NCBI GenBank assembly: GCA_964519985.1
Contig: CAZFMF010000011.1
Location: 6,695 to 70,694 of the forward strand
Reading direction: 5' to 3'
Length of the DNA: 64,000 nt
Source: an uncultured Pseudobdellovibrionaceae bacterium
GTDB taxonomy: Bacteria > Bdellovibrionota > FAC87 > UBA2466
The first letter of the stretch is position 1. The number at the start of each line of letters is the position of its first letter. The notes beneath the pieces were generated by a model. That model was not told the origin of the DNA. It saw nothing but the letters and a program-made list of their open reading frames with translations, and searched no databases. The position numbers were made by a program, and so were the translations under genes. Shown one piece after another: positions 21,001 to 53,217 of the stretch.

Positions 21001-23037
21001 AAGGCTTTGAAATGTGCGCTGAGTGGGATTGAGCACCTGTCTGCCGGTTCGCAAGGATCGGAAGAACTACGTTCTCACTACATGACCTGGTGCCAATCTT
21101 ACGCGGTGGCGAGCCTCGTCATGATGGGTCGGAGCAGCGAGGCGCAGTACTACTTAGATGTCTTGAACGCCTACTTCCGAGAACACCCGAACGATAAATA
21201 CCATCTCGGAATTCACCTCAATAATCTCATTCAGGCTCACTTGGAGCAGGGAGAATACTCGGACGCGCCGGAACGAGAATTTTCCCGGCACAACGGACTC
21301 ATTCGAGTCTTCATCCCCTTGCTCCTGCTGCACTTGCGCCATTTTTACATCGCCAAGGCCTACCTTCGCTTTAACCAAATGCATTTTGCTCGCCGCGAAA
21401 ATACGCGCGAAAAAGAAAAGGCCTTTAAGAAGGCGCTGTGGGAATTGAAACTGGCTTGCGATAACCCCATGTTTAGCTCCCACTACTACACGCTGCGAGG
21501 GGCCTACCTGGCCTATAAGGGGAAGAATCGGCGAGCGCTGCGCTCCTTGAACAAAGCCGAGCGACTGGCCTTCATCTGCAATAATTCGACGGCACTGTAT
21601 TTTCAGCAGCTGACCAAGGCGCGGATGGAGAAGAAACAAGGAGGCGGTTCCGCAACTTCCATCGCCCAAACCGTCTACGCATTTTGCAAAAACCACGGCT
21701 GGGCGGGACGGCAATGGGAAATCGAAAAAGAGTTTGCCGATGTGCGCCTCGGCACAGGCACCGGCACGGAACCGGCGCAGCAAAGGGGCCGCCCTTCCGA
21801 CGAGGTCAATCAGTCTCAAGTCCAGGAAATGGATGCGTTGCTTACGATCAACCTCGCCTTGGCGAGTGCCCGTAATGATTCCGAGCGAGGGCAACTCGTT
21901 TTGGATAAAGTGATGCATGCCATTGGGGCGGAACGCGGAGCGTTCTTTCTCTGGGACGACGCCTCCAATCGCCTAAGCTTCTCGCTCGGCCAATCCAGCG
22001 ATGGAAAGTCATTCAATGAACTCAAGGGCTACAGCAGTACCGTGGTCGATAAAGTCTTCCGCACGCAACAACCCATTATCGTCAGTGGTACCGAAGAAGG
22101 CGAAGCGATGGGCAGCGCCAGCATCACGCTCTTCGACCTCCGAAGTATTATTGCCGCCCCCGTTAGCGTGAACGAGAAGCGTTTCGGAGTCATTTATCTG
22201 GATAGCCGTTTCGCCAAAGGAATTTTCAACGCCCGGGATCTCGATTTCCTGCGCGCCGTCGGTATCCAGATCGCCATTGGGATTGATAGCAATCGCAGCG
22301 CGCGCATCTCGGTGGAGAAAGTCCGCATCGAGAAAGAACTCGAATTGACCGGAGCCGTGCAACGGCTCTTAATTCCCAAATCCACCGATCTAGAAACCGA
22401 CCGCTTCCACCTGAGTTACTTTTTCCAAACCGCGAGCCAATCGGGCGGCGACTGGATCTGGTACCAGTCCGAAGAAAACGGAGACCTCACCATTCTGTTG
22501 GGGGATGTCGTGGGGCACGGTCCGGCCGCCGCCATGATCACGGCCATCGTTTCCGGTACGTACCACGCCCTCCGCGAGACCGCCGACACACCGGTGATCC
22601 TGGAGCGGATCGATCAAGTCCTAAAGGACATGATGAAGGGCGAATACTGGATTTCCCTACTCGTGGTCCGCGTGCTTAAGGACAAAATTGAAGTTTACAA
22701 CGCCGGCATGCCCTACTTCTCTTTCTTAAAGAAAGGCAAAGCGGTCGAGCAGATTGGCATTCCGTCCTGTGGGCCTCTGGGCCTGGATGTGAAGCCGGTC
22801 AAGAAAACCGAAATCCCGTTCGCAAAAGGCGACCGCTTCATGGTCTGCACCGACGGCGCCTTCGAATTCGCTCACAAAAACGGTATTTTTGGCGAACGCC
22901 GCCTCAACAAGCTCTTCTCATCGACCGCTGGTCTAGTACTGCCCGAGGCCCGGAACAAAATTGCCCAAACCGTCCTCTCCGAAATCGCGGGCCCCGTCCC
23001 TGATGACGTGGCGCTGGCGATCGTGGAAAAGAAGTAA
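18040..23037 (+). CDS. Giant multidomain Ser/Thr protein kinase (PknK-like): Hanks kinase, AAA_16/STAND ATPase, TPR/MalT-like region, GAF domain and C-terminal SpoIIE/PP2C phosphatase domain
   Basis: Kinase motifs GSGTSSLVY (Gly loop), AVK, HRDLKPEN-like HQDLKPENIY and DFGL. Walker A GEAGAGKS after the kinase. Long helical/TPR region. GAF-like segment near aa 1280-1430. PP2C/SpoIIE motifs GDVVGHGPAAAM and CTDGAFE at the C-terminus. The TTG start from the track is uncertain. Confidence 0.85.
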   Translation: MPIRRQTGASLSAVPKIKTESLPSGLELLEAVGSGTSSLVYRARRDGKIYAVKMSKTADPDGRLLKGFRTEATILAQINHPALVQTQEVGSHHGHPYIVMEYLEGELLSSRLKRGKLPGDEIYTIALKLADVLHSVHSHGVIHQDLKPENIYWNPKTGVLKLFDFGLVGTQGRNTAGQSIGTLDYMSPEQLGILDRPIDARSDLYSLGVTLLECVAERMNVPQIAGRSVEAQFQYEPTDILRLNEEIKYEFAKILCTLLKKDPDDRFASADELFTAINRKVFHRQDTLSKQEHLVGRESEKELLYKHWEDCLSGRGSSILVEGEAGAGKSALVSDLVRRAQSDNTISLRGKCTQRLPFAPLRRFFAEIQKTISHGHPAYSKLGSNFVDKSASIRRISPALADHFGLGEGDIGGNQDRFFEEIADVFVILSRYLPVILFIDDIQWIDAETMRTLDCLSPKLAENRILLVMTSRSSFEYLDSLQLFEERFKVSRKISLGSLTPQETNLLVQAYSGNQSIEERFLTHVHTSTGGLPFSVGELLRNISLNGVLAPNWGKLEVQWDQLYNLDLPSDVIELVRRRISSLSETTREVLCTASIVGVSFNVALLSKVTGKKESVVLDALTQGHLQFLVEPTTEGEYKFIHDRVHEAFRAQLEGSRKRELHQKIALTLLETRPTAAHEVFSMADHFWDGYPEQNTKEAYEISVAAGKLASESHALEKAYEYFLRAEGLAAKAGLDPVDPELIGAICTKIGKKAEAIERYQAAIDRTSSKWLRARILGKMAETYVTNLETAEGLKLIERAFAEIDLVPPHPVRTIVSIVWGVVRGLFGYWTGIGYGNATGEKREQLKIIVNLHAQFGFVKFFDLQPLYMVYSGLRNLHNVNRIGDSAELVNLYCNLYLAFGILKIRPFYDSFYRRARLVAERLADPQLIAHVEAYYAFAIVYAGKEVQAENRVRQLLHDYKNSLITEDYVYLCGVYMSSLVVRGFPEKALKCALSGIEHLSAGSQGSEELRSHYMTWCQSYAVASLVMMGRSSEAQYYLDVLNAYFREHPNDKYHLGIHLNNLIQAHLEQGEYSDAPEREFSRHNGLIRVFIPLLLLHLRHFYIAKAYLRFNQMHFARRENTREKEKAFKKALWELKLACDNPMFSSHYYTLRGAYLAYKGKNRRALRSLNKAERLAFICNNSTALYFQQLTKARMEKKQGGGSATSIAQTVYAFCKNHGWAGRQWEIEKEFADVRLGTGTGTEPAQQRGRPSDEVNQSQVQEMDALLTINLALASARNDSERGQLVLDKVMHAIGAERGAFFLWDDASNRLSFSLGQSSDGKSFNELKGYSSTVVDKVFRTQQPIIVSGTEEGEAMGSASITLFDLRSIIAAPVSVNEKRFGVIYLDSRFAKGIFNARDLDFLRAVGIQIAIGIDSNRSARISVEKVRIEKELELTGAVQRLLIPKSTDLETDRFHLSYFFQTASQSGGDWIWYQSEENGDLTILLGDVVGHGPAAAMITAIVSGTYHALRETADTPVILERIDQVLKDMMKGEYWISLLVVRVLKDKIEVYNAGMPYFSFLKKGKAVEQIGIPSCGPLGLDVKPVKKTEIPFAKGDRFMVCTDGAFEFAHKNGIFGERRLNKLFSSTAGLVLPEARNKIAQTVLSEIAGPVPDDVALAIVEKK

Positions 23038-27740: not shown

Positions 27741-28397
27741 GTGCCATCAAAGGTGGTCGGCAGCGCCGTTATCTACATCGATGGCAAGGACCGTCTTGTA
27801 AAAATAGGCGGTGACCCGGCTTGGCGGAACAACAACCCGGGGAACCTTAAGAGCGGTGCCCACACGCGCATTCATGGCTCGATCGGAGTCGTGAACGGAT
27901 TTGCTGTGTTTCCGACCGAGGAGATCGGGACGGAAGCGAGGATTCGGCTGTTGAAGGGAAGCAAGTATCGAAACAAGACGATCATCGAGGCAGTGAAATC
28001 TTATGCGCCGAAGAGCGACGGCAATAATCCCGAGCGGTACGCGCGGCAGATCGAGTCGATTGCTGGCTTGAAGCGCAATCGAGTGTTGAAGGATCTTTCC
28101 GATGGCGAGTTTACGGCACTCGTCGCGGCCATGAAGCAAATCGAAGGAAATCGACCGGGACGAGAGGAAAAGTTTCGGGTTAAGGAGATAATAGATATTC
28201 GGGTAAACGAACGGAACGCTATTGTCGCCTACAACATTGAGGACTACGGTTGGTTGTCGAAGGCGGAGACGATCGCGCTCATCGAGCAGGGGCGTATCGA
28301 TGCTGTCGTGGTAACGGAGAAGGGGCGAACTTATGTTAGAACGCGGCCCGATCACGCGACATCAAACAATCTGTATGAGATGAAACCGCAAAAGTGA
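27741..28397 (+). CDS. Hypothetical protein (AWRNNNPGNL motif), function unknown
   Basis: 218-aa ORF 10 nt downstream of the DUF4431-like gene, same strand. No family recognised with confidence. Confidence 0.4.
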   Translation: MPSKVVGSAVIYIDGKDRLVKIGGDPAWRNNNPGNLKSGAHTRIHGSIGVVNGFAVFPTEEIGTEARIRLLKGSKYRNKTIIEAVKSYAPKSDGNNPERYARQIESIAGLKRNRVLKDLSDGEFTALVAAMKQIEGNRPGREEKFRVKEIIDIRVNERNAIVAYNIEDYGWLSKAETIALIEQGRIDAVVVTEKGRTYVRTRPDHATSNNLYEMKPQK

Positions 28398-28465
28398 AGA
28401 TCGGATCGGCTCAGAATGTCGCGTCTCGCAAATCGAAGCACAAAATAAACCAATCAAGGTCTGGA

Positions 28466-29314
28466 TTAGCTCCGATCGAGTTCGGCGAGAATCTCCAGTA
28501 GCGCCTTCCACTGATCATCGAATGACGGAGGGTCTTCTCCTAATTCTACACTCGGCCACGCGCCTCGCAGTATCGAAAGGTCAAATCTCTTGGCTTCCGA
28601 CAAAAAATATCTAGGCACTTCCGTATTCCTCCTCTCGAATGTCATTCGTATAGCGTTGAGCAGCGATGTTCTGTCCTGGCACCGTGCAAAGAGAAGCACG
28701 AGATCATAAACATCGCGGGAGCGAGAGTTGGCCGATCCGCGTCGGTAGAGAGTCTGCAATTTTTCCGCAAACATGCTCTCCAGTGGATACACTCGCCACG
28801 ACACCGATTGACCCCGCCCCAGTATGGATTCCATAGTCTGCGACTTTGGCTTAGCTGGGAGCGCATCACCAAATCCAATATCCATCTGTATCCGAGATAG
28901 TTTTTTGACCTTACTGGCTGAAGGTTCTTCGCCGATCTGAAAGGCGACGCTGAAGCGAATTCCTTCGTAATCACCCTGGTGCTCCAGCGGTTCATTTTTC
29001 AGGTCACCGTACCAAAGTCCATCATCCAAATTTTTTGAAAGTGCCGACTCCATCAGGGCCGGAATCTTTTGCGCTGATAGCTCGTGGGCGAGGGCGTCAA
29101 CATCGCGGGTAAATCTGGGACTATCAATAAGCTTGAATAGAACAAACCCGCCTTTGAACACCAAGTGCTTGAAGAGAATGGGATGCGCTTCGATGCGGGC
29201 GATCGCCCGTTCAAGGGCAACAATGATTCTCAGCTCATTGATATCTCGAGAGGAATCCGCATCCGCAATTTTCTTGAGGGCGCTCATGACAGCCCGGCCC
29301 CTTTCCACGTTCAT
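28466..29314 (-). CDS. abiEii: Type IV toxin-antitoxin/abortive-infection toxin AbiEii-like nucleotidyltransferase (DUF1814)
   Basis: About 280 aa with the HLVFKGGFVLFKL..RFTRDVDAL region (a nucleotidyltransferase GG/DxD-like fold). The 4-nt overlap with the upstream AbiEi-like gene is the canonical abiE arrangement. Confidence 0.65.
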   Translation of the reverse strand: MNVERGRAVMSALKKIADADSSRDINELRIIVALERAIARIEAHPILFKHLVFKGGFVLFKLIDSPRFTRDVDALAHELSAQKIPALMESALSKNLDDGLWYGDLKNEPLEHQGDYEGIRFSVAFQIGEEPSASKVKKLSRIQMDIGFGDALPAKPKSQTMESILGRGQSVSWRVYPLESMFAEKLQTLYRRGSANSRSRDVYDLVLLFARCQDRTSLLNAIRMTFERRNTEVPRYFLSEAKRFDLSILRGAWPSVELGEDPPSFDDQWKALLEILAELDRS

Positions 29315-29880
29315 GCGAGGGCCTCGAGATAGGGTTGGACTCGATGGTAGACGTCTAACTCTTTCGCTACATCGGCAATACGCCCGAGATTTACGGAGCC
29401 TTTGATAGCTCTTCGTAAGGCTTCCATCGCGATATTAGTGCCGATCAGATTTCGGAACAGGATGGCATCTACCAGAGTGCGTTCGATAGAGGTTATCCAA
29501 TACTGTTTCTTTTTTTCGATTCCAATCTTCCATTGAGGGTTTCGCGTTCGCAACAGTCGAATATTGCGATGCTGTGTGCGTTTGGCAGCTTCGACCATCA
29601 GCCAAACTTTTTTCGGAATCGCGTCGGTTAAGTGGTAATGCGCTAACGCGGATACGAGGCACACGGCATTGGGACGCCCAATCTGCGCCGAGGCTGCGGC
29701 AAAGGACTCTTCTTCCGAATAATCGGCGTCGCCTGTCTGATAGAGTCCTCGGCCGACCTTACGCAGCGTTCCGTCCGTCACCATCTTCTTGAGGCAATAG
29801 AAGGTAATGCCAGCTTTTGCCGCTTCCTGGGTCGAAAATGGCCGGTTCTTGAAAGACCTTGGAATTTTTGCCTGGCCCAT
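29311..29880 (-). CDS. abiEi: AbiEi-family antitoxin/transcriptional regulator (winged-helix N-terminus plus C-terminal AbiEi_4-like domain)
   Basis: 189 aa. QEAAKAGITFYCLKKMVTDGTLRKVGRGLY is typical of the AbiEi N-terminal winged helix. It overlaps the AbiEii-like gene. Confidence 0.65.
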   Translation of the reverse strand: MGQAKIPRSFKNRPFSTQEAAKAGITFYCLKKMVTDGTLRKVGRGLYQTGDADYSEEESFAAASAQIGRPNAVCLVSALAHYHLTDAIPKKVWLMVEAAKRTQHRNIRLLRTRNPQWKIGIEKKKQYWITSIERTLVDAILFRNLIGTNIAMEALRRAIKGSVNLGRIADVAKELDVYHRVQPYLEALA

Positions 29881-29990
29881 TTAAATAAAATGACACGATT
29901 TCAATTTTGTGTCAATTTACATAATTTTTCAAGAGAGCGCCAAACCCCAATTGGCCTGTTATGAGACGGATCGGCGGGTGACCGGAGGGA

Positions 29991-30701
29991 CTAGTCCTCC
30001 AGTACCTCCGTCAGAGCCTTGGCCTTTTGCGCAATTGCGTTCTTGTGTTCCTGCGCCGTCAGCGCCCGCTCCAGCGCCGCCGTCGTTTCGTCGATTGCGG
30101 CAAACCGGGACGGGTCCTCGTTCGTATCGACCAGCGCGGTTTTGAGCCAATGCGCCAGATCCGCAAACTGCGTATCGACCGACTTCTTGGTCTGCTCCAA
30201 ATCCTCGCCCGTCAAAACGCTTTTCGGGATCAGTTCGTGTAGCGACATGAGCTGTTTTTCATGGGTTTCCTCGTAGAGCCGCGAGACCTCCGGCGCAAAC
30301 AGCTCCTGATTGTGCAATCGCCAGCACGTCAGATCCCGAATATCCGAGAGCAAACCGCTCAGCGCCACCGCCGTATCGTACCCCAGGTAGTGGAATGTAC
30401 CGGGCGCAGAGGCCTTCACCTGCTCCTTCGACGACGTCAGCGCAAGTTTTAGCTCATCCTGAAACCCGACCTCGTGGCGACGGATTTCGGCCACGATCCA
30501 ATCCTGCGCCAAAGTCGAAAGGGTGCCCGGGTTGAAAATCGCATCACCATCCACTTCAAAATACCGAGCCAAAACGGGAAATAGTTTCTTGTCCATTTCG
30601 GCCGGATCCATCCGCGGCGGCTCATAGTAGCCAACGGATTTGCGCGGCCCGCGGTTGAAATCACTTGGATCTTCGGCATCGATGTAGAAATCACTCCGCA
30701 A
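29991..30701 (-). CDS. Hypothetical protein
   Basis: 236-aa acidic ORF with a TTG start in the track and no clear ribosome-binding site. It may be spurious or start downstream. Confidence 0.3.
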   Translation of the reverse strand: MRSDFYIDAEDPSDFNRGPRKSVGYYEPPRMDPAEMDKKLFPVLARYFEVDGDAIFNPGTLSTLAQDWIVAEIRRHEVGFQDELKLALTSSKEQVKASAPGTFHYLGYDTAVALSGLLSDIRDLTCWRLHNQELFAPEVSRLYEETHEKQLMSLHELIPKSVLTGEDLEQTKKSVDTQFADLAHWLKTALVDTNEDPSRFAAIDETTAALERALTAQEHKNAIAQKAKALTEVLED

Positions 30702-31093
30702 ATCGAATCGAATTTTGGGGTGAGAGATGACGCTCGTCTTTACCGTTCCTTCAAAATCCGATGCACTCAGACGCAGAGCAAGACCGGGCTTGTAGTAAAA
30801 GATCCCATTCTTTCGGGATCGCGTGTTCGAAAGCGTATCTTCGCTCCAGTGGGTATCCAGCTCAGTGGCATATTGGATGGGCCGCAGACCCGAGTTTTTT
30901 CGGATGAAACTCAGCAGCCGAAGTTCCGGGCCTCGCGTGGTGTCTCAAATTCGAAGGGTTTGCGTCTCAACCAAGAGACTTCCTTCAAAGGTGAGAAACG
31001 ACTAGCCGATGAGTCCGCTACGAACGCTGTCCCACAGGCTATTGAATCCCAAGGGTTCTTGCCGTCTATACAAAAATAAGACATACCCAACGC

Positions 31094-31309
31094 ATGGGAA
31101 CAACGAGGAGGAAGGCTGGGCGTCCGAAGCGCGTTCTTCCCATGAAAATGGTTGGAATTCGACTTCAAGAATCTCTCATTGAGAGACTTAGAAGACTCGC
31201 ATCTCAGGAAGGCCTCCCGTACCAAACTTACCTCCGAAAAGTAGTCTGGGATCACGCTTTTAAGCGCGAAACTTTGATCGGCGAAACGGGCAATGGAACA
31301 AAGGCCTAA
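31094..31309 (+). CDS. CopG/ribbon-helix-helix DNA-binding protein, BrnA-antitoxin-like
   Basis: GRPKRVLPMKMVGIRLQESLIERLRRLASQEGLPYQTYLRKVV matches the BrnA (COG3514) pattern GRP...........IRLD.D.L..FK......GYQT.IN..LR. No BrnT partner was detected upstream. Confidence 0.45.
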   Translation: MGTTRRKAGRPKRVLPMKMVGIRLQESLIERLRRLASQEGLPYQTYLRKVVWDHAFKRETLIGETGNGTKA

Positions 31310-34300
31310 CCGCAATAAGCCAAGCACTAGCCCTGGCGAAAGACTCCTTTACTGGCATCTGGGAAAATATCCAAAAGCAGTCCAGTGGGCTGTCCCGTCG
31401 CTTCTTGTCATAGGAGCCCTTGTTACCCAGCATTTTCTCCGACCGGTAATTGGAGAGCGCAGTTTTCTTCTCCTCTATCCGACCGTCTTTTTTAGCGCTT
31501 TGATCAGCGGCAGCCTCGGGCCTGGCGTTCTTGCAAGTTTCATTGCGACCATCGGCGCTTGGTACTTCTTTGTTCCCACTATTTACTCGTTCACTATCAC
31601 CCGGGTGGGCGATTTATTTGGCCTCGTCACGTTTGCATTCACCGGACTTAGCTTCAGTCTGATTAGCGGAAAGCTTCGTTCCATTCAAGGCGCGGAAAGT
31701 GAAGTTGCACAGCTCAGTGCCATCATTACCTCGAGCGATGATGCTATTATCAGTAAGACTCTGAATGGAACGATTCTGACCTGGAATCCGGGAGCAGAAA
31801 AAATATTCGGGTACTCTGCAGATGAGATGCAAGGGAAAAGCATCTTCTCAATTATCCCTGCAGATAAGCATGAAGAAGAGCGCAGAATATTGGATAGGCT
31901 GTCGCGAGGAAGCAGTCTCGTGCAATACGAGACCACTCGGATTCGAAAAGACGGCACGCTGGTCGAAATCGCTTCCACGATTTCTCCGATCAAAGACGAG
32001 AAAGGGAACGTCATTGGTGCCTGCAAAATCGGCAGGGACGTCACGGAAAAAAAAGCAACCGAAAGAAATATTCAGGAGCTTCTGAATACCACCTCCGTGA
32101 TCAACGAGGTCTACGCAAGAATGCGCGGAGAACCAACTACCAAGGAGCTCGCCGAAAATGTCCTCACCTACCTGGCCCATTCCCTAAAGGCTCATGTCGG
32201 GGCGTTTTATCGAGTAAATGAAGAGCGCCTGATACGCCTGGCTGGATTTGCCCTTCCCCATGAAACGAATATTCCATTTCCAGAAATGTTTCACAGGGGG
32301 CAAGGGCTTCTTGGACAGGCAGTAAAATCCGGGGAGCCCTTTATCCTTGCGACGATCCCTGAGAATTACCTCACCATCCGATCCGCACTCGGAGAAACAA
32401 AGCCAGCCTCTTTGCTATTCGTCCCCATTCAGCACGAAGGGAAGGTAATCGCGGCAATTGAGTTTGGGACGCTTAGTGGGTTCGCGGAAGAGCATCGGGT
32501 TCTTGTCAAGAATATCTCGGAGATTATCGGGGTTGGGCTTTTCTCGGCCGACACCCGGGAACAGCTAAAGCAGCTTTTAGAGGAAACGCGCGCTCAGCAA
32601 GATGAACTTCAGGCATCGAACGAGGAATTGGAAAATACAACCAACGAGCTACAAACCCAGCAAGAGGAACTAAAGCAGGCCAACGAAGAGCTGCAAGAGC
32701 AGAGGACGGCTCTCGAGGAACAAAAGGAATCTCTGGAGAAAACAAATCGCAAAGCGGAGGAAGCCCGCTCTGAGGTGCAACGAAAGGCCGAAGCTCTGGA
32801 GACGGCCGGCAAATACAAATCTGAGTTTCTCGCAAATATGTCGCATGAGCTCAGGACCCCATTAAACAGCATTCTCCTTCTTTCCAAAGCCATGTCCGAA
32901 AATTTGGAAGGGAATTTGAATTCCAATCAATTGGAATCAGCGCACACCATTCACTCTTCCGGAACGGATCTACTGAACCTGATTAACGATATCTTAGACC
33001 TTTCCAAGGTCGAAGCGGGTAAGCTTGAAATCAGAATTTCGGACGTCGAAATCTCGGAGCTGGTCGTGGCCCTCAAGAACCAATTCCGTGCCCAGATGGA
33101 GGCTAAGGATCTTTCCTTCGAGATCGAAATCGCCGAGCTCTGTCCCGAAGAAATTACTACGGATCGATTGCGGCTCGAGCAGATCCTGAAGAATTTTCTT
33201 TCTAACGCAATTAAGTTCACGGAAAAAGGCTTCGTCAAAGTCATTTTCCATGCGGTTCCTCATGACAATTCCTCAATTGCTATCACGGTCAAAGATACCG
33301 GAATCGGCATTCCGGAAGCACAAAGATCGCTCATTTTTGAAGCTTTCGAACAAGGCGACAACTCAATCAGTCGAAGATATGGAGGTACGGGATTGGGGTT
33401 GACGATCGCAAGGGAGCTCGGCGGTCTCCTGGGCGGAGAAATACAAGTCCATAGCGAGGAAGGCAAAGGGAGTGAGTTTACGCTCGTACTCCCCATTCAC
33501 TTCGATGAAGGCAGGACCGTGACCGCCATTAGTTCGCGGGCGCCTTCTGTGGACGTGACGCCTAGTGAACCCGCTCCCGCTGCCAAGGTTCGCAAAAATG
33601 GTTCGGAACGAGTGGATGATCGACGAAAGATTGATAAGGGTGACCGAGTCCTCCTTATCATTGAGGACGATCCTCATTTTGCCAAGATTCTCCTGGGACT
33701 TTGTCGAGGTCGCGGATTTAAATGCTTGCTCGCCACGAATGGTGAAGCGGGACTAACCGATGCCGATGAGTTCCAACCCGATGCTATCATTTTGGATTTG
33801 AGACTTCCCGCCATGAGCGGGATGACGGTTCTGGGAAGGCTTAAGAAAAATCTTCGGACCAGGCATATCCCAGTACATGTTATGTCGGTCGAAGAGAAAC
33901 GTAACGAGGTCCTCCAAATGGGAGCCGTGGGGTTTCTTTCAAAACCCGCCGATAAAGAACGACTCGAGGACGCTCTAAAGCGTATCGAAACAACGATTAG
34001 CACCAAAGCGAGGAGTGTTCTTGTCGTCGAAGATCGTAAAGTTGAGCGAGAGGCCATTCTCAAGCTTATCGGTAACGGAGACGTCACTTCCGTCGGTGCC
34101 GAGACTGGAGAAGAAGCGCTTCAATTACTCAGGACCAGAGTCTTCGACTGCATGATTCTCGATATAAAGCTCCCCGATTTTTCGGGGTTCGATCTATTGG
34201 ATAAAATGGAGAAGGACGAGACTCTTTCTCGGCCCGCCGTCATCATCTATACGGGACGAGATCTCACCAAAGATGAAATTGTGCGCTTAAATAAGTTTTC

Positions 34301-34817
34301 ACAGACCATTATTATAAAGGGCGTGAAATCAGAAGATCGCCTCTTCGACGAAGTCGCTCTCTTCCTTCATCGTGTCGTAGCGGACCTGCCCGAATCGAAA
34401 CAGCGTACCTTAGAACGTGTTCGACACCGCGAAGGGCTCTTCGAGGGAAAGAAAATATTGGTAGTCGATGATGACATGCGAAATGTCTTTGCGCTCCGAA
34501 GCCTTCTGCAAGGCAGAGGCTTTGAAATCTTTGCCGCTAAGACGGGTAAGGAAGCGCTGCGACACCTGGACGAACACTCGGACGTCGATATTGTCCTCAT
34601 GGATATCATGATGCCCGAAATGGACGGTTTTGAGGCCATGCGAAAAATAAGGGCCCAGGAAAAATTCATGAAACTCCCGATTATTGCCCTCACCGCGAAG
34701 GCAATGGTTGGAGACCGGGATAAATGCTTAGAGGCGGGAGCCAATGACTATCTCTCGAAGCCCATCGACGGCGAAAGTTTGCTCTCTTTGTTAAGAGTTT
34801 GGTTAACCAGAGCGTAA
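31293..34817 (+). CDS. Hybrid sensor histidine kinase: N-terminal membrane sensor domain (DUF4118/KdpD-like), PAS, GAF, long Glu/Gln-rich coiled coil, HisKA, HATPase_c and three C-terminal receiver domains
   Basis: H-box ANMSHELRTPLN. N/G boxes GTGLGLTIARELGGLLGGEI. Three REC signatures (LLIIEDDP...DAIILDLRLP, VLVVEDRK...DCMILDIKLPDFSG, ILVVDDDM...DIVLMDIMMPEMDG). Confidence 0.9.
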   Translation: MEQRPNRNKPSTSPGERLLYWHLGKYPKAVQWAVPSLLVIGALVTQHFLRPVIGERSFLLLYPTVFFSALISGSLGPGVLASFIATIGAWYFFVPTIYSFTITRVGDLFGLVTFAFTGLSFSLISGKLRSIQGAESEVAQLSAIITSSDDAIISKTLNGTILTWNPGAEKIFGYSADEMQGKSIFSIIPADKHEEERRILDRLSRGSSLVQYETTRIRKDGTLVEIASTISPIKDEKGNVIGACKIGRDVTEKKATERNIQELLNTTSVINEVYARMRGEPTTKELAENVLTYLAHSLKAHVGAFYRVNEERLIRLAGFALPHETNIPFPEMFHRGQGLLGQAVKSGEPFILATIPENYLTIRSALGETKPASLLFVPIQHEGKVIAAIEFGTLSGFAEEHRVLVKNISEIIGVGLFSADTREQLKQLLEETRAQQDELQASNEELENTTNELQTQQEELKQANEELQEQRTALEEQKESLEKTNRKAEEARSEVQRKAEALETAGKYKSEFLANMSHELRTPLNSILLLSKAMSENLEGNLNSNQLESAHTIHSSGTDLLNLINDILDLSKVEAGKLEIRISDVEISELVVALKNQFRAQMEAKDLSFEIEIAELCPEEITTDRLRLEQILKNFLSNAIKFTEKGFVKVIFHAVPHDNSSIAITVKDTGIGIPEAQRSLIFEAFEQGDNSISRRYGGTGLGLTIARELGGLLGGEIQVHSEEGKGSEFTLVLPIHFDEGRTVTAISSRAPSVDVTPSEPAPAAKVRKNGSERVDDRRKIDKGDRVLLIIEDDPHFAKILLGLCRGRGFKCLLATNGEAGLTDADEFQPDAIILDLRLPAMSGMTVLGRLKKNLRTRHIPVHVMSVEEKRNEVLQMGAVGFLSKPADKERLEDALKRIETTISTKARSVLVVEDRKVEREAILKLIGNGDVTSVGAETGEEALQLLRTRVFDCMILDIKLPDFSGFDLLDKMEKDETLSRPAVIIYTGRDLTKDEIVRLNKFSQTIIIKGVKSEDRLFDEVALFLHRVVADLPESKQRTLERVRHREGLFEGKKILVVDDDMRNVFALRSLLQGRGFEIFAAKTGKEALRHLDEHSDVDIVLMDIMMPEMDGFEAMRKIRAQEKFMKLPIIALTAKAMVGDRDKCLEAGANDYLSKPIDGESLLSLLRVWLTRA

Positions 34818-34822
34818 ACTCC

Positions 34823-35662
34823 ATGAGCTTAAAAGCCATTCAAGCGACGGATTACGAAAACCTTGAAATGAAACTTCTGATTGATGCCGTATACCAAAAG
34901 TACGGCTATGACTTTCGCAACTACGCGCACGCGAGCTTTAAGCGAAGGCTCGTAAAGGCCCGAATCAAACATGACTGCAAGAATATTGCGGAGATTCTTT
35001 ACCGAACGTTAACCGAACCCGATTTTTTTTCCGTTCTTATTAACGATCTCACCGTCACCGTAACTGAGTTATTTCGAGATCCTTCCGTTTACCGTGCCGT
35101 CCGGGAAGAGATTGTGCCACATTTAAAAACCTATCCCGAGATAAAGGTTTGGTGCGCAGGCTGCGCTGCGGGGGAAGAGGTTTTCTCATTAGCCATTCTT
35201 CTTGAAGAAGAAGGACTGTACAACCACTCGATCCTCTACGGAACCGATATCAATCCTTTGGCTTTGGAGTGTGCTCGTGACGGGATTGTATCGCTCGCCA
35301 AGATTAAAGACGGCACGAAGAACTATTTTGAAGCGGGCGGTAAGCAATCTCTCACTAGTTATTACACAGCGGAATACGATGCGGCTCTTCTAAGATCCGA
35401 ATTAAGAGAAAACCTTGTCTTCTCCGATCATAATTTGGCTACGGATGGGGTTTTTGGAGAAATGCAGCTGATCTTCTGCAGAAACACGCTCATCTACTTC
35501 AATCGAGATCTTCAGGACCGGGCGATCGGCTTGTTTCGAGAAAGTCTTTGCCCGGGTGGTTTCCTGTGTTTGGGAGCGAAAGAGAGCCTGAGCCTATCGA
35601 AGTATAGACGGGACTTTGAGGAAATTGGGCCTTCAAAAAAAATTTATCGAAAGAAATGGTGA
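34823..35662 (+). CDS. cheR: Chemotaxis protein methyltransferase CheR
   Basis: CheR SAM-binding region VWCAGCAAGEEVFSLAILLEE..YGTDINPLALECARDG and C-terminal LIFCRNTLIYFNRDLQ. Start placed at the ATG just after the kinase stop; the track ORF begins at 34799. Confidence 0.9.
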   Translation: MSLKAIQATDYENLEMKLLIDAVYQKYGYDFRNYAHASFKRRLVKARIKHDCKNIAEILYRTLTEPDFFSVLINDLTVTVTELFRDPSVYRAVREEIVPHLKTYPEIKVWCAGCAAGEEVFSLAILLEEEGLYNHSILYGTDINPLALECARDGIVSLAKIKDGTKNYFEAGGKQSLTSYYTAEYDAALLRSELRENLVFSDHNLATDGVFGEMQLIFCRNTLIYFNRDLQDRAIGLFRESLCPGGFLCLGAKESLSLSKYRRDFEEIGPSKKIYRKKW

Positions 35663-35666
35663 TTCC

Positions 35667-36257
35667 ATGGGGGAGAAAAATTACCAGGCAATCACTGTCG
35701 GCACTTCTCTCGGTGGCTTTCGTGCTTTGGAAGTCATTCTGCTGGGACTGCCGCGCGGATTTGGGGTTCCTATCCTTATCGTCCAGCACTTAGATCCAAA
35801 TTCCGACGGATTAGTTCCTTCGCTCCTGTCCGAAAAATGCGCTATTCGGATCAAGGAAGCGGATGACAAAGAGGCGATTGAGTCAGGAACTGTCTACGTT
35901 GCTCCGCCCAATTACCACCTTCTGGTTGAGCCCGATAGGACGCTATCGCTTTCCATCGATGAAAAGGAAAACTATTCTAGACCCTCCATTGACGTTCTCT
36001 TTGAATCCGCCGCGGAGGCCTATAAGGGGTCCCTAATCGGGATTGTCCTGACCGGCGCCAGTCACGACGGCGCCCGGGGGCTCGAGAAAATTAAGGCGAT
36101 GGGAGGACTCACGATCGTTCAGGATCCGGAAACCGCCGAAAGCAGGATTATGCCGGTAGCCGCGATTCGACAGGCAAAGGCAGACTATATTCTGCCGCTA
36201 CCAGAAATCACGGATTTCATAGTGCGTTGTTGTGAGGGAGAGGGAACAATCGTATGA
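35667..36257 (+). CDS. cheB: Chemotaxis protein-glutamate methylesterase CheB, catalytic domain only (no receiver domain)
   Basis: CheB_methylest motifs TVGTSLGGFRAL (Ser), VQHLDPN (His) and GIVLTGASHDGARGL (Asp). About 197 aa. The stop overlaps the next gene's start (ATGA). Confidence 0.85.
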   Translation: MGEKNYQAITVGTSLGGFRALEVILLGLPRGFGVPILIVQHLDPNSDGLVPSLLSEKCAIRIKEADDKEAIESGTVYVAPPNYHLLVEPDRTLSLSIDEKENYSRPSIDVLFESAAEAYKGSLIGIVLTGASHDGARGLEKIKAMGGLTIVQDPETAESRIMPVAAIRQAKADYILPLPEITDFIVRCCEGEGTIV

Positions 36258-37831
36258 AAGAGATCGTCAACGTTCTTGCTGTAGATGACAAGCCATCAAA
36301 TCTTCTGGCTCTCGAAAACACTCTTCAAGGACATAAAATCAATTTTGTTAAAGCTGGCACCGGTAATGAAGCTTTAGCCAGGCTCTTAGAAATGGAGTTC
36401 GCGTGTGTTTTGCTTGATGTAAAGCTCCCCGATATCGACGGATTTGAACTTGCCCGAATTATTCGCGGCGACGAGAAGACAAAATATCTCCCGATAATTT
36501 TCGTAAGTGGCCATCGGATTGGGCAAGATGACATTTTCACGGGCTACGAGATCGGAGCCTTTGACTACCTCCTCAAGCCGATCGACCCCACGATCGTCAG
36601 GAGCAAGGTAAATATATTTGCCGAGATGTATCGAAAAGAGACCGAGCGTAAACTCACACAACGAGCTCTCGAGGCAAGTGAAAAACACACACGCATGATT
36701 ATCGAGAACGCTACCGATGCTTTTGTGGCGATTGATGCCCAAGGAGTCATAACCGCCTGGAACCAATCCGCGGAACTTACATTCGGTTGGAGTAAGGACG
36801 AGATTGTTGGAAAACCGGTGGCCGAAACACTCATCCCCTCGCGCTATCGACCCGCCCACCAGAAAGGATTGGATCATTACTTCAAGACGGGAGAGGGTGC
36901 GGTCTTGAATAAACGTCTCGAGCTCTCGGCTCTGCACAAGGACGGCAGGGAGTTTCCCATTGAAATTTCCATCTCGGACGCTGCGGTAAAAGATGGAATC
37001 GCGTTCTTTGCCTTCATTCATGACATCTCGGAGCGCAAACGTGCCGAAAATGCAATCCGCAAAGCAAAAGAAGATCTGGAAGGACGCGTAAAAGAGAGAA
37101 CAATGGAACTAACGCTGCAAACGGAGGAGCTGAAGCGATCCAACGAAGAGTTGGCAAGATTCGCCTATATCTCTTCTCACGACCTCAAAGAGCCCCTCCG
37201 GATGATTTCGATGTATACCCAGATCCTGGAGGCAAGACATGCCGGACAGCTGAGTCAGGAGGCCAGGGACTGTATGGATATCGTAGTCGAGGGAGCTTCG
37301 AGAATGCGCACCCTCATTGACGATCTTCTTACGTATGCCCGGGTGGGACGAGGAGAAGAGAATTTTATAATGGTCGATACGAGCAAGGTCGTGGATAAGG
37401 TTATTGGCAATCTCAAGGCGTTAACCACCGAGACTGGCGCCGAGATCGATTGCGGGCGACTTCCGTCACTTGAAGCTCAAGAGGCTCAGATTACCCAGGT
37501 GTTTCAAAACCTGATCAGTAACGCGATTAAGTTTCGTGGGGCGGCGGCGCCCAAGATCAAGATCGAAGCCAAGGAAGTGGATGGATTTTATCAATTTTCA
37601 GTTCGAGACTTCGGTATCGGAATTCGTCCGGAATACCACGCCAAGTTGTTTAAGATTTTCCAAAGGCTCCATACCAAGGAAAAGTATCCAGGAACCGGGA
37701 TCGGTCTCTCCGTGTGCAAAAAGATAGTTGAGATTCACGGAGGCAAGATTTGGGTGGAGTCCGAAGAAGAAAAAGGGGCGACGTTTCATTTTACACTCCC
37801 CAAGACACAACCGACGGGAGTTAGACTTTAG
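36254..37831 (+). CDS. Response-regulator/sensor histidine kinase hybrid (REC-PAS-HisKA-HATPase_c), HWE/bacteriophytochrome-type H-box
   Basis: N-terminal REC (LAVDDKPSN...VLLDVKLPDIDG). PAS domain. H-box SSHDLKEPLRMI. ATP-binding GTGIGLSVCKKIVEIHGG. Confidence 0.9.
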   Translation: MKEIVNVLAVDDKPSNLLALENTLQGHKINFVKAGTGNEALARLLEMEFACVLLDVKLPDIDGFELARIIRGDEKTKYLPIIFVSGHRIGQDDIFTGYEIGAFDYLLKPIDPTIVRSKVNIFAEMYRKETERKLTQRALEASEKHTRMIIENATDAFVAIDAQGVITAWNQSAELTFGWSKDEIVGKPVAETLIPSRYRPAHQKGLDHYFKTGEGAVLNKRLELSALHKDGREFPIEISISDAAVKDGIAFFAFIHDISERKRAENAIRKAKEDLEGRVKERTMELTLQTEELKRSNEELARFAYISSHDLKEPLRMISMYTQILEARHAGQLSQEARDCMDIVVEGASRMRTLIDDLLTYARVGRGEENFIMVDTSKVVDKVIGNLKALTTETGAEIDCGRLPSLEAQEAQITQVFQNLISNAIKFRGAAAPKIKIEAKEVDGFYQFSVRDFGIGIRPEYHAKLFKIFQRLHTKEKYPGTGIGLSVCKKIVEIHGGKIWVESEEEKGATFHFTLPKTQPTGVRL

Positions 37832-37838
37832 GCGGCTT

Positions 37839-38294
37839 ATGAAGGTCAGCAACGAAATATTGGTCGTCGACGATAATAATGCGGATGTGAAGATCCTAAG
37901 AGACTTCTGGCCGGCGGAACTGGGAGCCTACCATTTCGTCGTAGCGGAAGACGGTGAGCAGGCACTTAACTACATTCACAAACGAGGAAGGTATTCGGGA
38001 CGAACAGCACCCTGCATCGTGTTCTTGGATCTTAACCTACCGAGAAAAAGCGGCACCGAAGTCCTGACCGAGATCAAAAAGCACCCCGAGTTCAAAAACG
38101 TCACCGTTATCGTCTTATCGGGTTCGGATGATCCAAGAGACAAAGCGCAGTGTCTCGCGCTGGGGGCCGAGCGGTTCTTCACCAAACCAAGTAATTTGGA
38201 AGGTCTCGGGGCCTTTTTTTCCGTAATGAAATCTTATCTCCGCAAGGATTGTGGAAACGAATCTGCGGGTGAGATAGGAGGAGACAAGGAATGA
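37839..38294 (+). CDS. Single-domain response regulator (CheY-like receiver)
   Basis: ILVVDDNNAD...IVFLDLNLPRKSG...VIVLSGSDDP receiver signature. Start placed at the internal ATG (MKVSNEILVVDD); the track ORF begins at 37728 and overlaps the upstream gene. Confidence 0.8.
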   Translation: MKVSNEILVVDDNNADVKILRDFWPAELGAYHFVVAEDGEQALNYIHKRGRYSGRTAPCIVFLDLNLPRKSGTEVLTEIKKHPEFKNVTVIVLSGSDDPRDKAQCLALGAERFFTKPSNLEGLGAFFSVMKSYLRKDCGNESAGEIGGDKE

Positions 38295-40228
38295 GTATCG
38301 CTAAATCATATGTTCTCTGTGTGGACGATGATCCCAGAAACCTCCTGGCTTTGAAGGCCGTACTCGCCAATGTGGGGGCCAATCTCGTCATGGCCCGTTC
38401 CGGAGCCGAGGCGCTTGAAGCAGCCGGGGAACGTGAGTTTGCGGTGATTCTCCTCGACGTCATGATGCCCGACATGGACGGGATCGAGACGGCAAAACGG
38501 CTTCGCGAACTGGAAAACGCGAAGCATAGCCCGATCGTATTCGTTACCGCCTACCCATTGGATGAGATGCGAACCTTTCGCGGTTATGCCTTGGGCGCCG
38601 TAGATTACATCCACAAACCAATTGGTACGGAAATTCTACAGTCTAAAGTTCGGGCATTCGTTCAACTCTTCGAGCTCCGTGAGCAGGTTAAAGAGCAGGC
38701 GATCAATGAGATGCGGCAACGTTGGGAAACGATGCGCCTTCGGGAAGAGTTTGAACGTGAGGCGTTACTTCATCTTTTCGTCGATAATGTAAAAGATTAC
38801 GGCGTTTTTTTTATCGATCCTGAAGGAGGCATCCACAACTGGAACCCGGCGTGCGAAAGTATCTTTGGATATCAGGAATCGGAAATTCTGGGGCGGGATT
38901 TTTCGACTATCTTCGTACCCGAAGATGTGAATAAGAGGGTGCACCTTTTGGAGCTTGAAAAAGCGAAAGAAAAAGGTCGAGCGGAGGATGAGCGATGGCA
39001 TCTGCGGAAAGACGGCACACGTTTTTGGGCGGACGGAGTGGTGACCCCGCTAAGAGACAAGAATGGAGAGCTACGAGGATTTTGTAAGCTGGTGCGTGAC
39101 AATACTCGGCGGAAAGAGTGGGAGGAGACACTTAAAAGAAGTGAAGATCGCTTTAGAATGGCGGTCGACTCCGCGCGATTAGGCACGTGGGACTACGATC
39201 CGAAGACGGGTAGCCTCGAGTGGTCCGATCGGGCGAAAGAGCTAGCCGGCCTCCCCGAGAATTCCACGGTAACTTACGAAACCTTTCTAGCTTCACTACA
39301 CCCTGAAGATCGCCCTCGCGTCGAGCAAAGAATAGCAGAAGCCCTGAGCGGAAAAGCCGACGGGCAATACGCGATTGAGTACCGAACGGTGGGTTTAGTC
39401 GATAAGATCATGCGGTGGCTCTATGTAAGGGGGAAAGTTTACACGGACGAGCAAGGCCTACCCACTCGTTTCATTGGAACGGTGATGGACATTACCGATG
39501 AAAAAAGAGCGGAAGAAGAACGAACGGCACTGATCGATAGCCTTAAGGGCTCGAATCGAGAGCTGGAAAGTTTTGCTTCTACGGCCTCGCATGATCTCCA
39601 GGAGCCACTCCGAATGATCTCTATGTATCTTTCGCTTCTCGAACGTCGCTTTCAAGGAAGATTGGGAGAAGACGAAAAAGAATACATGCATTCGGTTGTG
39701 AATGCCTCAGATAGAATGAAGCGTCTCACAACGGATCTACTTAGTTATTCGAGGCTATTCGGTGAGAAAATCGACTCAGGGCCAGTAGACCTGAACTCCG
39801 CGCTGGAGAAGGCTCTGGAGAATCTAAGTCTGGCGATTGAGGAAAGTGGCGCCAGAATTACGCGAGACCGACTCCCAATGATTCGCGGGAACGGCACGCA
39901 GTTAGTCCAGCTTTTCCAAAATCTTATCTCGAACGCAATCAAGTACCAAACGAGAAAATCCCTTCCGGAAATTTCTATATCGGCAATGCGACAAGACCAA
40001 CAATGGATAATTGCAGTTAAAGACAATGGTATAGGTTTCGATATGGAGCACTCCGGGAAGATTTTTGACGTCTTTCAACGTCTTCATTCCCGCACGGAAT
40101 ATGCTGGATCAGGACTTGGTCTCTCCACTTGTAGAAAAATCGTGGAGCATCATCAGGGAAGAATCTGGGCGGAGTCAGCGCCAGCCGATGGCTCGACATT
40201 TTACGTTGCCCTTCCCGTTTCCGAGTGA
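38291..40228 (+). CDS. Response-regulator/sensor histidine kinase hybrid (REC-PAS-PAS-HisKA-HATPase_c)
   Basis: REC (VLCVDDDPRN..ILLDVMMPDMDG). Two PAS blocks. H-box ASHDLQEPLRMI. ATP-binding GSGLGLSTCRKIVEHHQG. Confidence 0.9.
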   Translation: MSIAKSYVLCVDDDPRNLLALKAVLANVGANLVMARSGAEALEAAGEREFAVILLDVMMPDMDGIETAKRLRELENAKHSPIVFVTAYPLDEMRTFRGYALGAVDYIHKPIGTEILQSKVRAFVQLFELREQVKEQAINEMRQRWETMRLREEFEREALLHLFVDNVKDYGVFFIDPEGGIHNWNPACESIFGYQESEILGRDFSTIFVPEDVNKRVHLLELEKAKEKGRAEDERWHLRKDGTRFWADGVVTPLRDKNGELRGFCKLVRDNTRRKEWEETLKRSEDRFRMAVDSARLGTWDYDPKTGSLEWSDRAKELAGLPENSTVTYETFLASLHPEDRPRVEQRIAEALSGKADGQYAIEYRTVGLVDKIMRWLYVRGKVYTDEQGLPTRFIGTVMDITDEKRAEEERTALIDSLKGSNRELESFASTASHDLQEPLRMISMYLSLLERRFQGRLGEDEKEYMHSVVNASDRMKRLTTDLLSYSRLFGEKIDSGPVDLNSALEKALENLSLAIEESGARITRDRLPMIRGNGTQLVQLFQNLISNAIKYQTRKSLPEISISAMRQDQQWIIAVKDNGIGFDMEHSGKIFDVFQRLHSRTEYAGSGLGLSTCRKIVEHHQGRIWAESAPADGSTFYVALPVSE

Positions 40229-40274
40229 CGGCACGGGACCGAATCTTCCCATTGCTTTCGAACGAGGTAGTAAG

Positions 40275-40298
40275 CGCCACTCCGGCGCCGGAGTGGCG
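40275..40298. repeat. REP-like palindrome, extended 24-bp form CGCCACTCCGGCGCCGGAGTGGCG (copy 5), after the histidine kinase stop and before ung
   Basis: Exact 16-mer core with a 4-bp perfectly complementary extension on each side. Confidence 0.8.
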
Positions 40299-40368
40299 AT
40301 TCGGCAGGGTGCCGCGCCGCGATTCCTTCGCTTGTCGGGTCACCATCCACGGCGCTATACCGGAATTC

Positions 40369-41079
40369 ATGAATGAAACGTCCGGCACCGCGCGATTTCC
40401 CCAGAACCTTCCGCCCCAATGGCGTAGCCACCTCTCGGCGGAGGCGGAAAAGGACTACTTCACCGGGCTAACCCGATTCCTGCGTTCGGAATACCAGAGC
40501 GGAAAGAAGATCTTTCCATCGCGCGATCACATTTTGCGGGCGCTGCAGGCAATTGATTACGATCGGGTGAAGGTCGTCATCCTGGGACAGGATCCCTATC
40601 ACGGCGATGGTCAGGCGATTGGCCTTTGTTTCGCCGTTCCAAATTCCTTAAAGCCCAAGCCACCGAGCCTGATGAACATCTTCAAGGAGATTACTTCCGA
40701 TCTCGGCAAGCCGGTAAACCCGCAAGAGTCGGAACTTTCCCACTGGGTGGATCAAGGGGTTTTGCTCCTCAATACCGTGCTTTCCGTTCGCCAGGGACAA
40801 GCGCACTCGCACAAGGAAAAAGGTTGGGAGTGCTTTACCGACCGAGTCATCACCCTGCTCAACGAACGCGAAAAGCCCTTGGTCTTTATCCTTTGGGGCT
40901 CGCCGGCTCGGAAGAAAAAAGCCCTGATCACCAATCCCAAGCACCGCATCTTGGAATCGGCTCACCCTTCTCCCCTTTCGGCTTACGCGGGCTTCTTCGG
41001 TAGCCGTCCCTTTTCCCGCGCCAATGCGATTCTGGAAAGCTGGGGCGAGACGCCGATCGACTGGGAAATCACGCGCTAA
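40369..41079 (+). CDS. ung: Uracil-DNA glycosylase, family 1 (Ung)
   Basis: Catalytic water-activating motif VVILGQDPYHGDGQAIGLCFAV. HPSPLSA motif. N-terminal W..L..E..YF..L. Start placed at 40369 (MNETSG..). The track ORF starts at a GTG at 40225, but that extension contains the intergenic palindrome at 40279-40294. Confidence 0.9.
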   Translation: MNETSGTARFPQNLPPQWRSHLSAEAEKDYFTGLTRFLRSEYQSGKKIFPSRDHILRALQAIDYDRVKVVILGQDPYHGDGQAIGLCFAVPNSLKPKPPSLMNIFKEITSDLGKPVNPQESELSHWVDQGVLLLNTVLSVRQGQAHSHKEKGWECFTDRVITLLNEREKPLVFILWGSPARKKKALITNPKHRILESAHPSPLSAYAGFFGSRPFSRANAILESWGETPIDWEITR

Positions 41080-52852: not shown

Positions 52853-53217
52853 TTCGAGCCCCCTCGAGCCGGAAGGCCTTTGTCGATAACGAGATTCATC
52901 GCGCGCTGGATCGGAATGCGCACCACTCCCTGCGGTCGGTTCACCCAGCCGTACGTCGACAGATGCTCGAGCTGAGCCTTCTTAAAGGCGGCCATTTCGT
53001 CCTGCGGCCGCGATTGGAGCGGAGGAAACGTCATGGGCCGCTTCAAAACCAATTCCGGATCCGGGTGCATATGCGGCGTACCGTAAACATAGAAAACGAA
53101 CGCACAGGTGGCGCCGATCATCGCAAAAAGCCCAATGGCCCACAGGAACAGCCCCTTAAGCGGCAGGTCCTTTTCGTAGTAATCGATCGTCGTCGAAGTT
53201 TCGGAGTGTTTTTGCAT
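52849..53217 (-). CDS. Small single-TM membrane protein of unknown function between actF and SCO1 (possibly an accessory ACIII/oxidase subunit)
   Basis: Start at MQKHSETSTTIDYYEK.. (ATG overlaps the actF stop, TAATG). One transmembrane helix LFLWAIGLFAMIGATCAFVFYVYG. The track ORF extends to 53580 by read-through. Confidence 0.4.
   Translation of the reverse strand: MQKHSETSTTIDYYEKDLPLKGLFLWAIGLFAMIGATCAFVFYVYGTPHMHPDPELVLKRPMTFPPLQSRPQDEMAAFKKAQLEHLSTYGWVNRPQGVVRIPIQRAMNLVIDKGLPARGGSK

Follow-up and report, generated by a model that had tools for sequence, protein, structure and literature searches.

A glutamate ladder in a hybrid histidine kinase as candidate substrate of the CheR/CheB pair encoded beside it

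By joining open reading frame (ORF) calls and Pfam domain assignment with comparative alignment, genome-wide neighbourhood searches and structure prediction, our work on a 64-kb stretch of an uncultured Pseudobdellovibrionaceae genome (contig CAZFMF010000011.1, positions 6,695 to 70,694; hereafter the window) points to a histidine kinase that may be methylated in the manner of a chemoreceptor. Six co-directional genes at 31293-40228 (+ strand), joined by tight or overlapping junctions, encode a hybrid histidine kinase (HK1), a CheR methyltransferase, a CheB methylesterase, a second kinase (HK2), a single receiver (REC) protein and a third kinase (HK3); an earlier note on this DNA had drawn the same cluster, with coordinates and domains that ORF calls and Pfam bear out (Table 1). 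We lean, with somewhat better than even confidence, towards a full explanation in which the six genes represent a widespread two-component cassette that uses CheR and CheB without a methyl-accepting chemotaxis protein (MCP), CheA or CheW, the kinase itself being the methylated protein. The segment of HK1 that is probably the substrate, judging from conservation and gene neighbourhood, is a coiled coil that leads into the phospho-accepting histidine.

HK1 is ordered as a DUF4118 membrane module, PAS, GAF, the coiled coil, HisKA (amino acids (aa) 509-576), HATPase_c (aa 624-735) and three receiver domains whose aspartates, D835, D957 and D1104, are invariant in a four-way kinase alignment. Over its length it is 41-52% identical to CheR-preceding kinases of Pseudodesulfovibrio, Desulfofarcimen and a Bdellovibrionales metagenome-assembled genome (MAG). 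The Glu/Gln-rich coiled coil that the earlier note had seen N-terminal to the H-box is indeed present, at aa 419-505, with a leucine at every seventh residue and an acidic pair ahead of each, which gives a ladder with the rungs E430-E431, D437-E438-L439, E444-E445-L446, E458-E459-L460 and E465-E466-L467. Within it the modules QQDELQASNEELE and LQTQQEELKQANEELQE stand 21 residues, or three heptads, apart, and modules of the form ELQxQQEEL(K/R)x(S/T/A)NEELE are common to four kinases of different phyla, always between GAF and the H-box. Invariant in this four-kinase set are Q435, Q436, E438, L439, N443-E447, L453, Q454, Q456-L460, N464-L467 and E469.

A larger alignment places the same pattern at a fixed distance from the phospho-accepting histidine. 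When 79 kinases are aligned without gaps on the H-box and positions are counted from the phospho-accepting histidine, the H-box is identical in 79/79, leucines recur at seven-residue intervals from -79 to -16, a glutamate pair standing ahead of each, and the last ~75 residues before the histidine hold no insertion or deletion at all. Glutamate occupies -53 and -52 in 88% and 97% of the kinases, next to a leucine at -51 in 100%, and -60 and -59 in 84% and 76%. The glutamates at -53 and -52 carry 3.6-4.1 bits of information, as against 4.3 bits for leucine and 1.8-2.4 bits at neighbouring positions, and the positions after each leucine are variable across the alignment. In HK1 these most conserved rungs correspond to E458-E459-L460 (-60/-59/-58 from H518) and E465-E466-L467 (-53/-52/-51). 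A single-sequence AlphaFold2 model of HK1 aa 400-745, poor overall (mean predicted local distance difference test score, pLDDT, 53.9), predicts one unbroken helix from aa 419 to 541 that runs through His518, with pLDDT of 77-91 over aa 420-499. If NEEL is assigned to heptad positions a-b-c-d, as we do here, the glutamates would point outwards from a dimer of parallel helices.

The ladder does not travel alone. We used the coiled coil by itself, with no kinase or GAF residues, as a query against 185,579 species-representative genomes, which yielded 433 confirmed loci, and analysed the best 80. These span at least 11 phyla, among them Bdellovibrionota, Desulfobacterota, Gamma-, Alpha- and Betaproteobacteria, Bacteroidota, Bacillota, Acidobacteriota, Spirochaetota, Actinomycetota and Nitrospirota. 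Thirteen of the 80 are uninformative, the contig ending too near the kinase; among the other 67, a CheR homologue lies beside the ladder kinase on the same strand in 60, and CheR and CheB together adjoin it in 54, likewise on that strand. For a gene picked at random we would expect a neighbouring CheR by chance in ~1% of cases (our own estimate, not a computed value). The usual order is kinase-CheR-CheB, with CheR-CheB-kinase in Leptospira and in Chitinophagaceae/Bacteroidota MAG loci. An MCP-like ORF occurs in 3 of the 80 motif-selected loci, and phmmer with E. coli queries finds CheW or CheA in none of them. Such strict co-occurrence across at least 11 phyla argues for a functional link between the ladder kinase and CheR/CheB. 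What varies is the part of the kinase N-terminal to GAF, which can be CHASE3, 4HB_MCP/TarH, dCache_1, HAMP arrays or, in HK1, DUF4118-PAS; the sensor modules of the family are largely those typical of chemoreceptors (4HB_MCP, TarH, dCache, HAMP arrays, CHASE3).

The same association emerges when CheR is the starting point. Of ten CheR homologues whose neighbourhoods we inspected, nine follow a GAF-HisKA-HATPase-REC hybrid kinase immediately or lie one gene away from it; at all nine of these loci a receiver-less CheB comes next, in eight it is followed by a REC-GGDEF or REC-kinase gene, and in all nine kinases the spacing between ladder and histidine is the same. The comparison of a CheR-CheB(no REC)-kinase neighbourhood across genomes, which the earlier note had proposed as a check, comes out in favour of conservation in both directions. 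One locus (L094) repeats the window's six-gene order whole, a similar last gene included, and shares with another (L005) the placing of a single REC after the HK2-type gene. The kinase partner is constant and the gene after CheB varies in type: it has a REC in 27 of 37 loci and is a REC-HisKA-HATPase protein in 18. All four testable sequence features of the hybrid kinase-CheR-CheB cassette are found in the window cluster, namely the GAF/helix/HisKA/HATPase/receiver core, adjacent CheR and receiver-less CheB, the ladder and a REC output gene.

Two of the related loci have an unusual layout. At one (L050, 7952-16226) two ladder hybrid kinases stand in tandem with a single CheR-CheB pair 1.6 kb past the second and 5.5 kb from the first, which fits one enzyme pair serving several kinases. 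At the other (L053, 13234-14559) a HAMP-GAF protein of 442 aa, with the ladder motif at its end and no kinase core, lies directly before CheR, with a full-length ladder kinase further upstream in the locus.

The two enzymes look competent. Equivalents of E. coli CheR residues R98, E129, D154 and Y235 are kept in the window protein and in 62-63 relatives, and the equivalent of the pentapeptide-binding R197 is not conserved in the window CheR or in its relatives (residue roles as cited in PMC5907407). The window CheR is 23.5% identical to E. coli CheR and 51-68% identical to 120 homologues, among the matches listed, from very diverse bacteria; a word index gave more than 5,000 homologues and an exhaustive search 1,045 cluster representatives at E<=1e-30. 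Among solved structures the window CheR is matched best by that of B. subtilis CheR (5FTW, E=1.7e-24). The window CheB can be aligned with T. maritima CheB (3SFT) over the catalytic domain, and the triad (E. coli S164/H190/D286) is invariant in the window protein and in 54/54 relatives. These invariant catalytic residues argue for retained enzymatic function. CheB is without a receiver, as the earlier note had claimed (CheB_methylest only, 196 aa), and the same holds at all 54 related loci that have a CheB. In canonical CheB the receiver blocks the active site until it is phosphorylated, so that a CheB lacking it is expected to be constitutively active; precise adaptation needs activity-dependent modification and not phosphorylation feedback. 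Fusions within the same CheR subfamily (P0124, P0138, P0205, P0238) comprise CheR-CheB, CheB-CheR, CheR-REC-GGDEF-EAL and CheR-REC-HisKA-HATPase, and none of the fusions among the best 150 CheR representatives has the ladder in the same chain. In long CheB-CheR fusion proteins of the KEGG K13924 type, which also contain PAS and kinase domains, the pair is tied to a histidine kinase, with NEEL-rich heptads beside the CheR domain.

Chemoreceptor machinery is absent from the window, in agreement with the earlier note. Neither E. coli Tar or Tap nor CheW or CheA found a counterpart among all window ORFs of at least 50 aa (phmmer, nothing at E<0.01), and no MCPsignal, CheA or CheW domain appeared in Pfam scans of 38 window ORFs, most of the longest included; this evidence covers 64 kb of the genome. 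Four of five features of a canonical chemosensory pathway are lacking (MCP, CheA/CheW, CheB receiver and site consensus), and the fifth, a CheR and a CheB that are catalytically competent as judged from conserved residues, is there.

From the gene order, the domains, the intact catalytic residues, the conservation and phasing of the motif and the co-occurrence counts, we infer the following scheme. HK1 would sense through its membrane, PAS and GAF modules, and the signal would travel along one long helix from GAF to the helix that bears His518. This helix would display the glutamate pairs, one per heptad, at outward b/c positions (leucine at d, asparagine at a), where the dedicated CheR would methylate them; the receiver-less CheB, presumed constitutively active, would strip the methyl groups and may deamidate adjacent glutamines. 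The level of methylation would then set the gain or the set-point of HK1 autophosphorylation and so provide memory or adaptation. Phosphoryl groups would pass through the three receivers of HK1, directly to the REC of HK2, the single REC and HK3, or by both routes, with HK2 the likely first acceptor and relay. HK1 would be, in effect, a HisKA kinase with a chemoreceptor-like sensor joined straight to it. The broader proposition, that a large, phylum-spanning class of two-component sensor kinases achieves adaptation through reversible methylation of glutamates in the [NQ]EEL ladder of the signalling helix, we hold to be about as likely as not.

The earlier note had offered either the first kinase or one of the kinases downstream, which it took to be of HWE type, as the methylation substrate. 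The comparative evidence supports the coiled coil of the first kinase. The downstream kinases are poor candidates as a class because the gene after CheB varies, and their typing must be revised as well: HK2 and HK3 match HisKA PF00512 (E=2e-12 and 1e-11), have SHDLxEPL H-boxes and give no Pfam match to HWE_HK. HK2 does contain a look-alike module, TEELKRSNEEL (window 37115-37150, aa 288-299), about ten residues ahead of its SHDLKEPL H-box, which its closest homologue (L007) shares as a variant. Among the other kinases encoded after CheB no conserved acidic ladder precedes the H-box, and we rejected the downstream kinases as a general substrate, the HK2 module not being conserved among them.

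Several observations weigh against a kinase substrate. The case for it is comparative, and a full-text search of the published literature found no report of kinase methylation. The ladder also does not fit the MCP methylation consensus, as the earlier note had recognized: EExxA[ST] occurs in 9 of the 79 coiled coils, where shuffling leads one to expect 8.4, and the Alexander-Zhulin consensus [ASTG]2-x2-[EQ]2-x2-[ASTG]2 in 0 of 79 against 1.2 expected, with neither in HK1; we dropped the idea of a disguised MCP methylation site, the consensus not being enriched over shuffled sequence. The structural model is a low-confidence single-sequence prediction from which the long helix alone is usable. 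Six loci (five Bacillaceae, L011, L012, L038, L045 and L047, and one Pseudomonadota MAG, L041) have CheR and no CheB within ~8 kb, which suggests that methylation there has no esterase of its own or draws on one encoded elsewhere, and seven ladder kinases have neither enzyme within ~8 kb and may depend on enzymes acting in trans. The cfcA-dependent colony phenotype of P. putida persisted in mutants of the other cfc genes (authors' unpublished observation, PMC4951495). The analysis spans 64 kb of the source genome, which may encode MCPs elsewhere. Finally, the tenth locus of the CheR look-up (L091, 4273-9743) has a canonical MCP in the slot of the kinase, directly upstream of a CheR 54% identical to that of the window and followed by a receiver-less CheB and then REC, PAS and kinase-REC genes, with no CheA or CheW within 8 kb. 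This MCP carries textbook methylation sites (TETQAASLEQTAAAMEQLTTTV), and the CheR subfamily is presumably able to act on MCPs and not strictly kinase-specific. The locus cuts both ways, in that a known type of substrate holds exactly the position of the kinase.

That last locus is also what lends colour to the view that CheR and CheB act in trans on MCPs elsewhere in the genome and are co-expressed with the kinase by mere adjacency. An MCP gene ~10 kb away at a Pseudodesulfovibrio locus, catalytic residues identical to those of MCP-modifying enzymes and the fact that the source genome is seen through a 64-kb window all fit it too. We nevertheless consider it unlikely. An MCP-like ORF is found at just 3 of the 80 motif-selected loci and CheW or CheA at none, whereas CheR stands beside a ladder kinase in 60 of 67; CheB lacks the receiver that would put it under the control of CheA; and CheR, 23.5% identical to the E. 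coli enzyme, has lost the pentapeptide-binding arginine. To our knowledge, many of the host genera (Flavobacterium, Pedobacter, Chitinophaga) are non-flagellated gliders that generally lack MCP, CheA and CheW. A role of the P. putida cfc CheR/CheB (CheR3 and its CheB) in chemotaxis has been excluded, according to PMC4951495, which cites Garcia-Fontana 2013.

The enzymes could instead modify another two-component part, for instance the single REC or one of the receivers in HK1, HK2 and HK3, with the coiled coil as a docking site at most. In Salmonella the response regulator PhoP receives methyl groups from CheR on Glu/Asp and Arg residues (PMC8546571). Within the subfamily of the window CheR, fusions to REC-GGDEF-EAL or REC-HisKA-HATPase occur (P0205, P0238), and the gene after CheB encodes a REC in 27 of the 37 loci mentioned above. 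Yet that gene is of more than one type and in some loci encodes no receiver protein, the downstream kinases have no conserved acidic ladder ahead of the H-box, and in the kinase, the partner that stays constant, no polar residues are better conserved than the coiled coil's glutamate pairs. We consider a receiver substrate about as unlikely as an MCP in trans. We regard as highly improbable that the ladder is a structural signalling helix and nothing else, with the cassette's CheR and CheB inactive relics or non-catalytic binders. Many histidine kinases have a long helical linker ahead of the H-box, HK2-type kinases with SHDLxEPL H-boxes likewise contain a single NEEL-like module, and the P. 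putida cfcB and cfcC mutants lack the cfcA phenotype; but the CheB triad and the SAM-binding (S-adenosylmethionine-binding) and catalytic residues of CheR are invariant in 54-63 relatives from many phyla, the glutamate pairs are near-invariant amid variable neighbours in a way that packing alone would not produce, and ladder and enzymes co-occur strictly over at least 11 phyla.

The cluster is no oddity. It is an ordinary member of a large and widespread cassette that already has names, described in Pseudomonas as cfcABCDE and bmsA (PMC4951495, PMC8175716). In P. putida, CfcA is a CHASE3/GAF hybrid kinase (PP_3761), CfcB is CheR3 (PP_3760), CfcC is CheB and CfcD is a REC protein (PMC4951495, PMC6849547, PMC6410093), and the bmsA cluster of P. 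alkylphenolica has the same order (PMC8175716). The window cluster resembles both in its succession of hybrid GAF kinase, CheR, CheB and a further REC/kinase gene, a match made from published order and domain description alone, and its kinase would likewise feed a REC-containing output, which in P. putida is the diguanylate cyclase CfcR. It differs in its sensor, CHASE3 in CfcA and BmsA and DUF4118-PAS in HK1, and in its output, made up of a single REC and two REC-PAS kinases, none of the cluster's genes encoding a GGDEF protein. Neither the cfc nor the bmsA papers name a substrate for CheR/CheB (PMC4951495, PMC8175716).

Resemblance to the chemotaxis systems of E. coli and Salmonella lies in the CheR and CheB folds with their conserved catalytic residues and in the MCP-type sensor modules of the kinase family. 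In Tar, Glu/Gln pairs recur at seven-residue spacing along a long helix, for instance at residues 295, 302 and 309, and the same spacing of Glu/Gln pairs along a long helix is seen in HK1. In contrast to the canonical pathway, there is no MCP hairpin, CheA or CheW, CheB has no receiver and CheR no pentapeptide-binding arginine; the helix runs into the HisKA phospho-acceptor helix, and the site motif is [NQ]EEL and not EExxA[ST]. The Wsp system comprises the MCP WspA, the CheR WspC, the receiver-bearing CheB WspF, the CheA-type kinase WspE, CheW proteins and the REC-GGDEF protein WspR. With Wsp the cassette would have in common a CheR/CheB pair that tunes a pathway with a REC-containing enzyme, and not the flagellar motor, as output, REC-GGDEF in several cassette relatives; the window cluster differs in having no MCP, CheW, CheA-type kinase or CheB receiver. 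Chemosensory systems with alternative functions are described in general terms in PMC8846402. Similarly, in Salmonella a CheR acts on PhoP, a two-component protein that is not a chemoreceptor (PMC8546571). There, in contrast, a chemotaxis CheR moonlights on a receiver/DNA-binding protein, with no dedicated operon, dedicated CheB or conserved helical ladder.

CheR/CheB pairs outside chemotaxis clusters have long been noted without a known substrate, P. putida CheR3 being an example. What is new here is mainly a residue-level prediction of the modified glutamates, as pairs at fixed heptad positions ahead of the phospho-accepting histidine at no fewer than 433 loci in species-representative genomes, which turns a vague annotation into a directly testable biochemical question. 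If the prediction holds, covalent adaptation would reach from chemoreceptor arrays to two-component kinases that control biofilm and cyclic di-GMP outputs, with chemoreceptor and kinase in one protein and neither CheA nor CheW, and methylation-based sensory memory would belong to bacterial signalling in general instead of being peculiar to chemotaxis arrays. The window itself contributes just one further case, in which the sensor is DUF4118-PAS and the output a multi-kinase relay.

Table 1. Features of the cluster (positions in the window)
Feature	Position	Strand	Basis
HK1, hybrid histidine kinase, 1174 aa	31293..34817	+	ORF, Pfam, identity to relatives
HK1 sensor part: DUF4118 aa 33-130, PAS aa 140-254, GAF aa 283-414	31389..32534	+	Pfam
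HK1 coiled coil, aa 419-505, candidate methyl-accepting segment	32547..32807	+	79-kinase alignment, AlphaFold2
HK1 core repeat, aa 435-469, modules QQDELQASNEELE and LQTQQEELKQANEELQE	32595..32699	+	Four-way alignment
Codon of HK1 His518, predicted phospho-accepting; H-box KYKSEFLANMSHELRTP	32844..32846	+	Alignment, HisKA match
Three HK1 receiver domains, ~aa 786-1167; D835, D957, D1104	33648..34793	+	Three Pfam Response_reg stretches
CheR-family SAM-dependent protein-glutamate methyltransferase, 279 aa	34823..35662	+	Pfam CheR_N and CheR
CheB methylesterase/deamidase, catalytic domain alone, 196 aa	35667..36257	+	Pfam CheB_methylest
HK2, REC-PAS-HisKA-HATPase kinase, 525 aa	36254..37831	+	Pfam
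Single-domain response regulator, 151 aa from ATG	37839..38294	+	Pfam Response_reg
HK3, REC-PAS-PAS-HisKA-HATPase kinase, 645 aa	38291..40228	+	Pfam

The junctions between the genes are as close as had been claimed, with the CheR ATG (34823) 5 nucleotides past the HK1 stop and the CheB stop overlapping the HK2 start as ATGA. Between the CheR stop and the CheB ATG (35667) the gap is 4 nucleotides; the start of the single REC was chosen at the ATG at 37839, 7 nucleotides past the HK2 stop, and its own stop overlaps the HK3 start, again as ATGA. Scans of the cluster for promoters and terminators gave nothing above shuffled expectation. An ORF with a uracil-DNA glycosylase superfamily domain follows at 40225-41079 (+), and its possible GTG start (40225) overlaps the HK3 stop (GTGA), so that it may be co-transcribed with the cluster; the domain begins at aa 114 of this ORF, and the true start may be further downstream.

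The cassette may lie in a horizontally acquired segment. Guanine-plus-cytosine (GC) content is 0.48-0.51 across 28000-40000 as against 0.55-0.61 in the flanks, GC skew is positive, and an ORF of the AbiEii toxin family lies just upstream of the cassette at 28469-29434 (-). Elsewhere in the window, a 1673-aa signalling protein at 18016-23034 (+) combines a Ser/Thr protein kinase, an AAA_16 ATPase, GAF and a SpoIIE/PP2C phosphatase, and a respiratory block at 49400-59900 (-) encodes cytochrome oxidase subunits I and II, SCO1/SenC, an NrfD-like membrane protein and a large 4Fe-4S protein; after it, at 60.6-63.7 kb, come genes for a Na+/H+ antiporter and a PAS-HisKA kinase.

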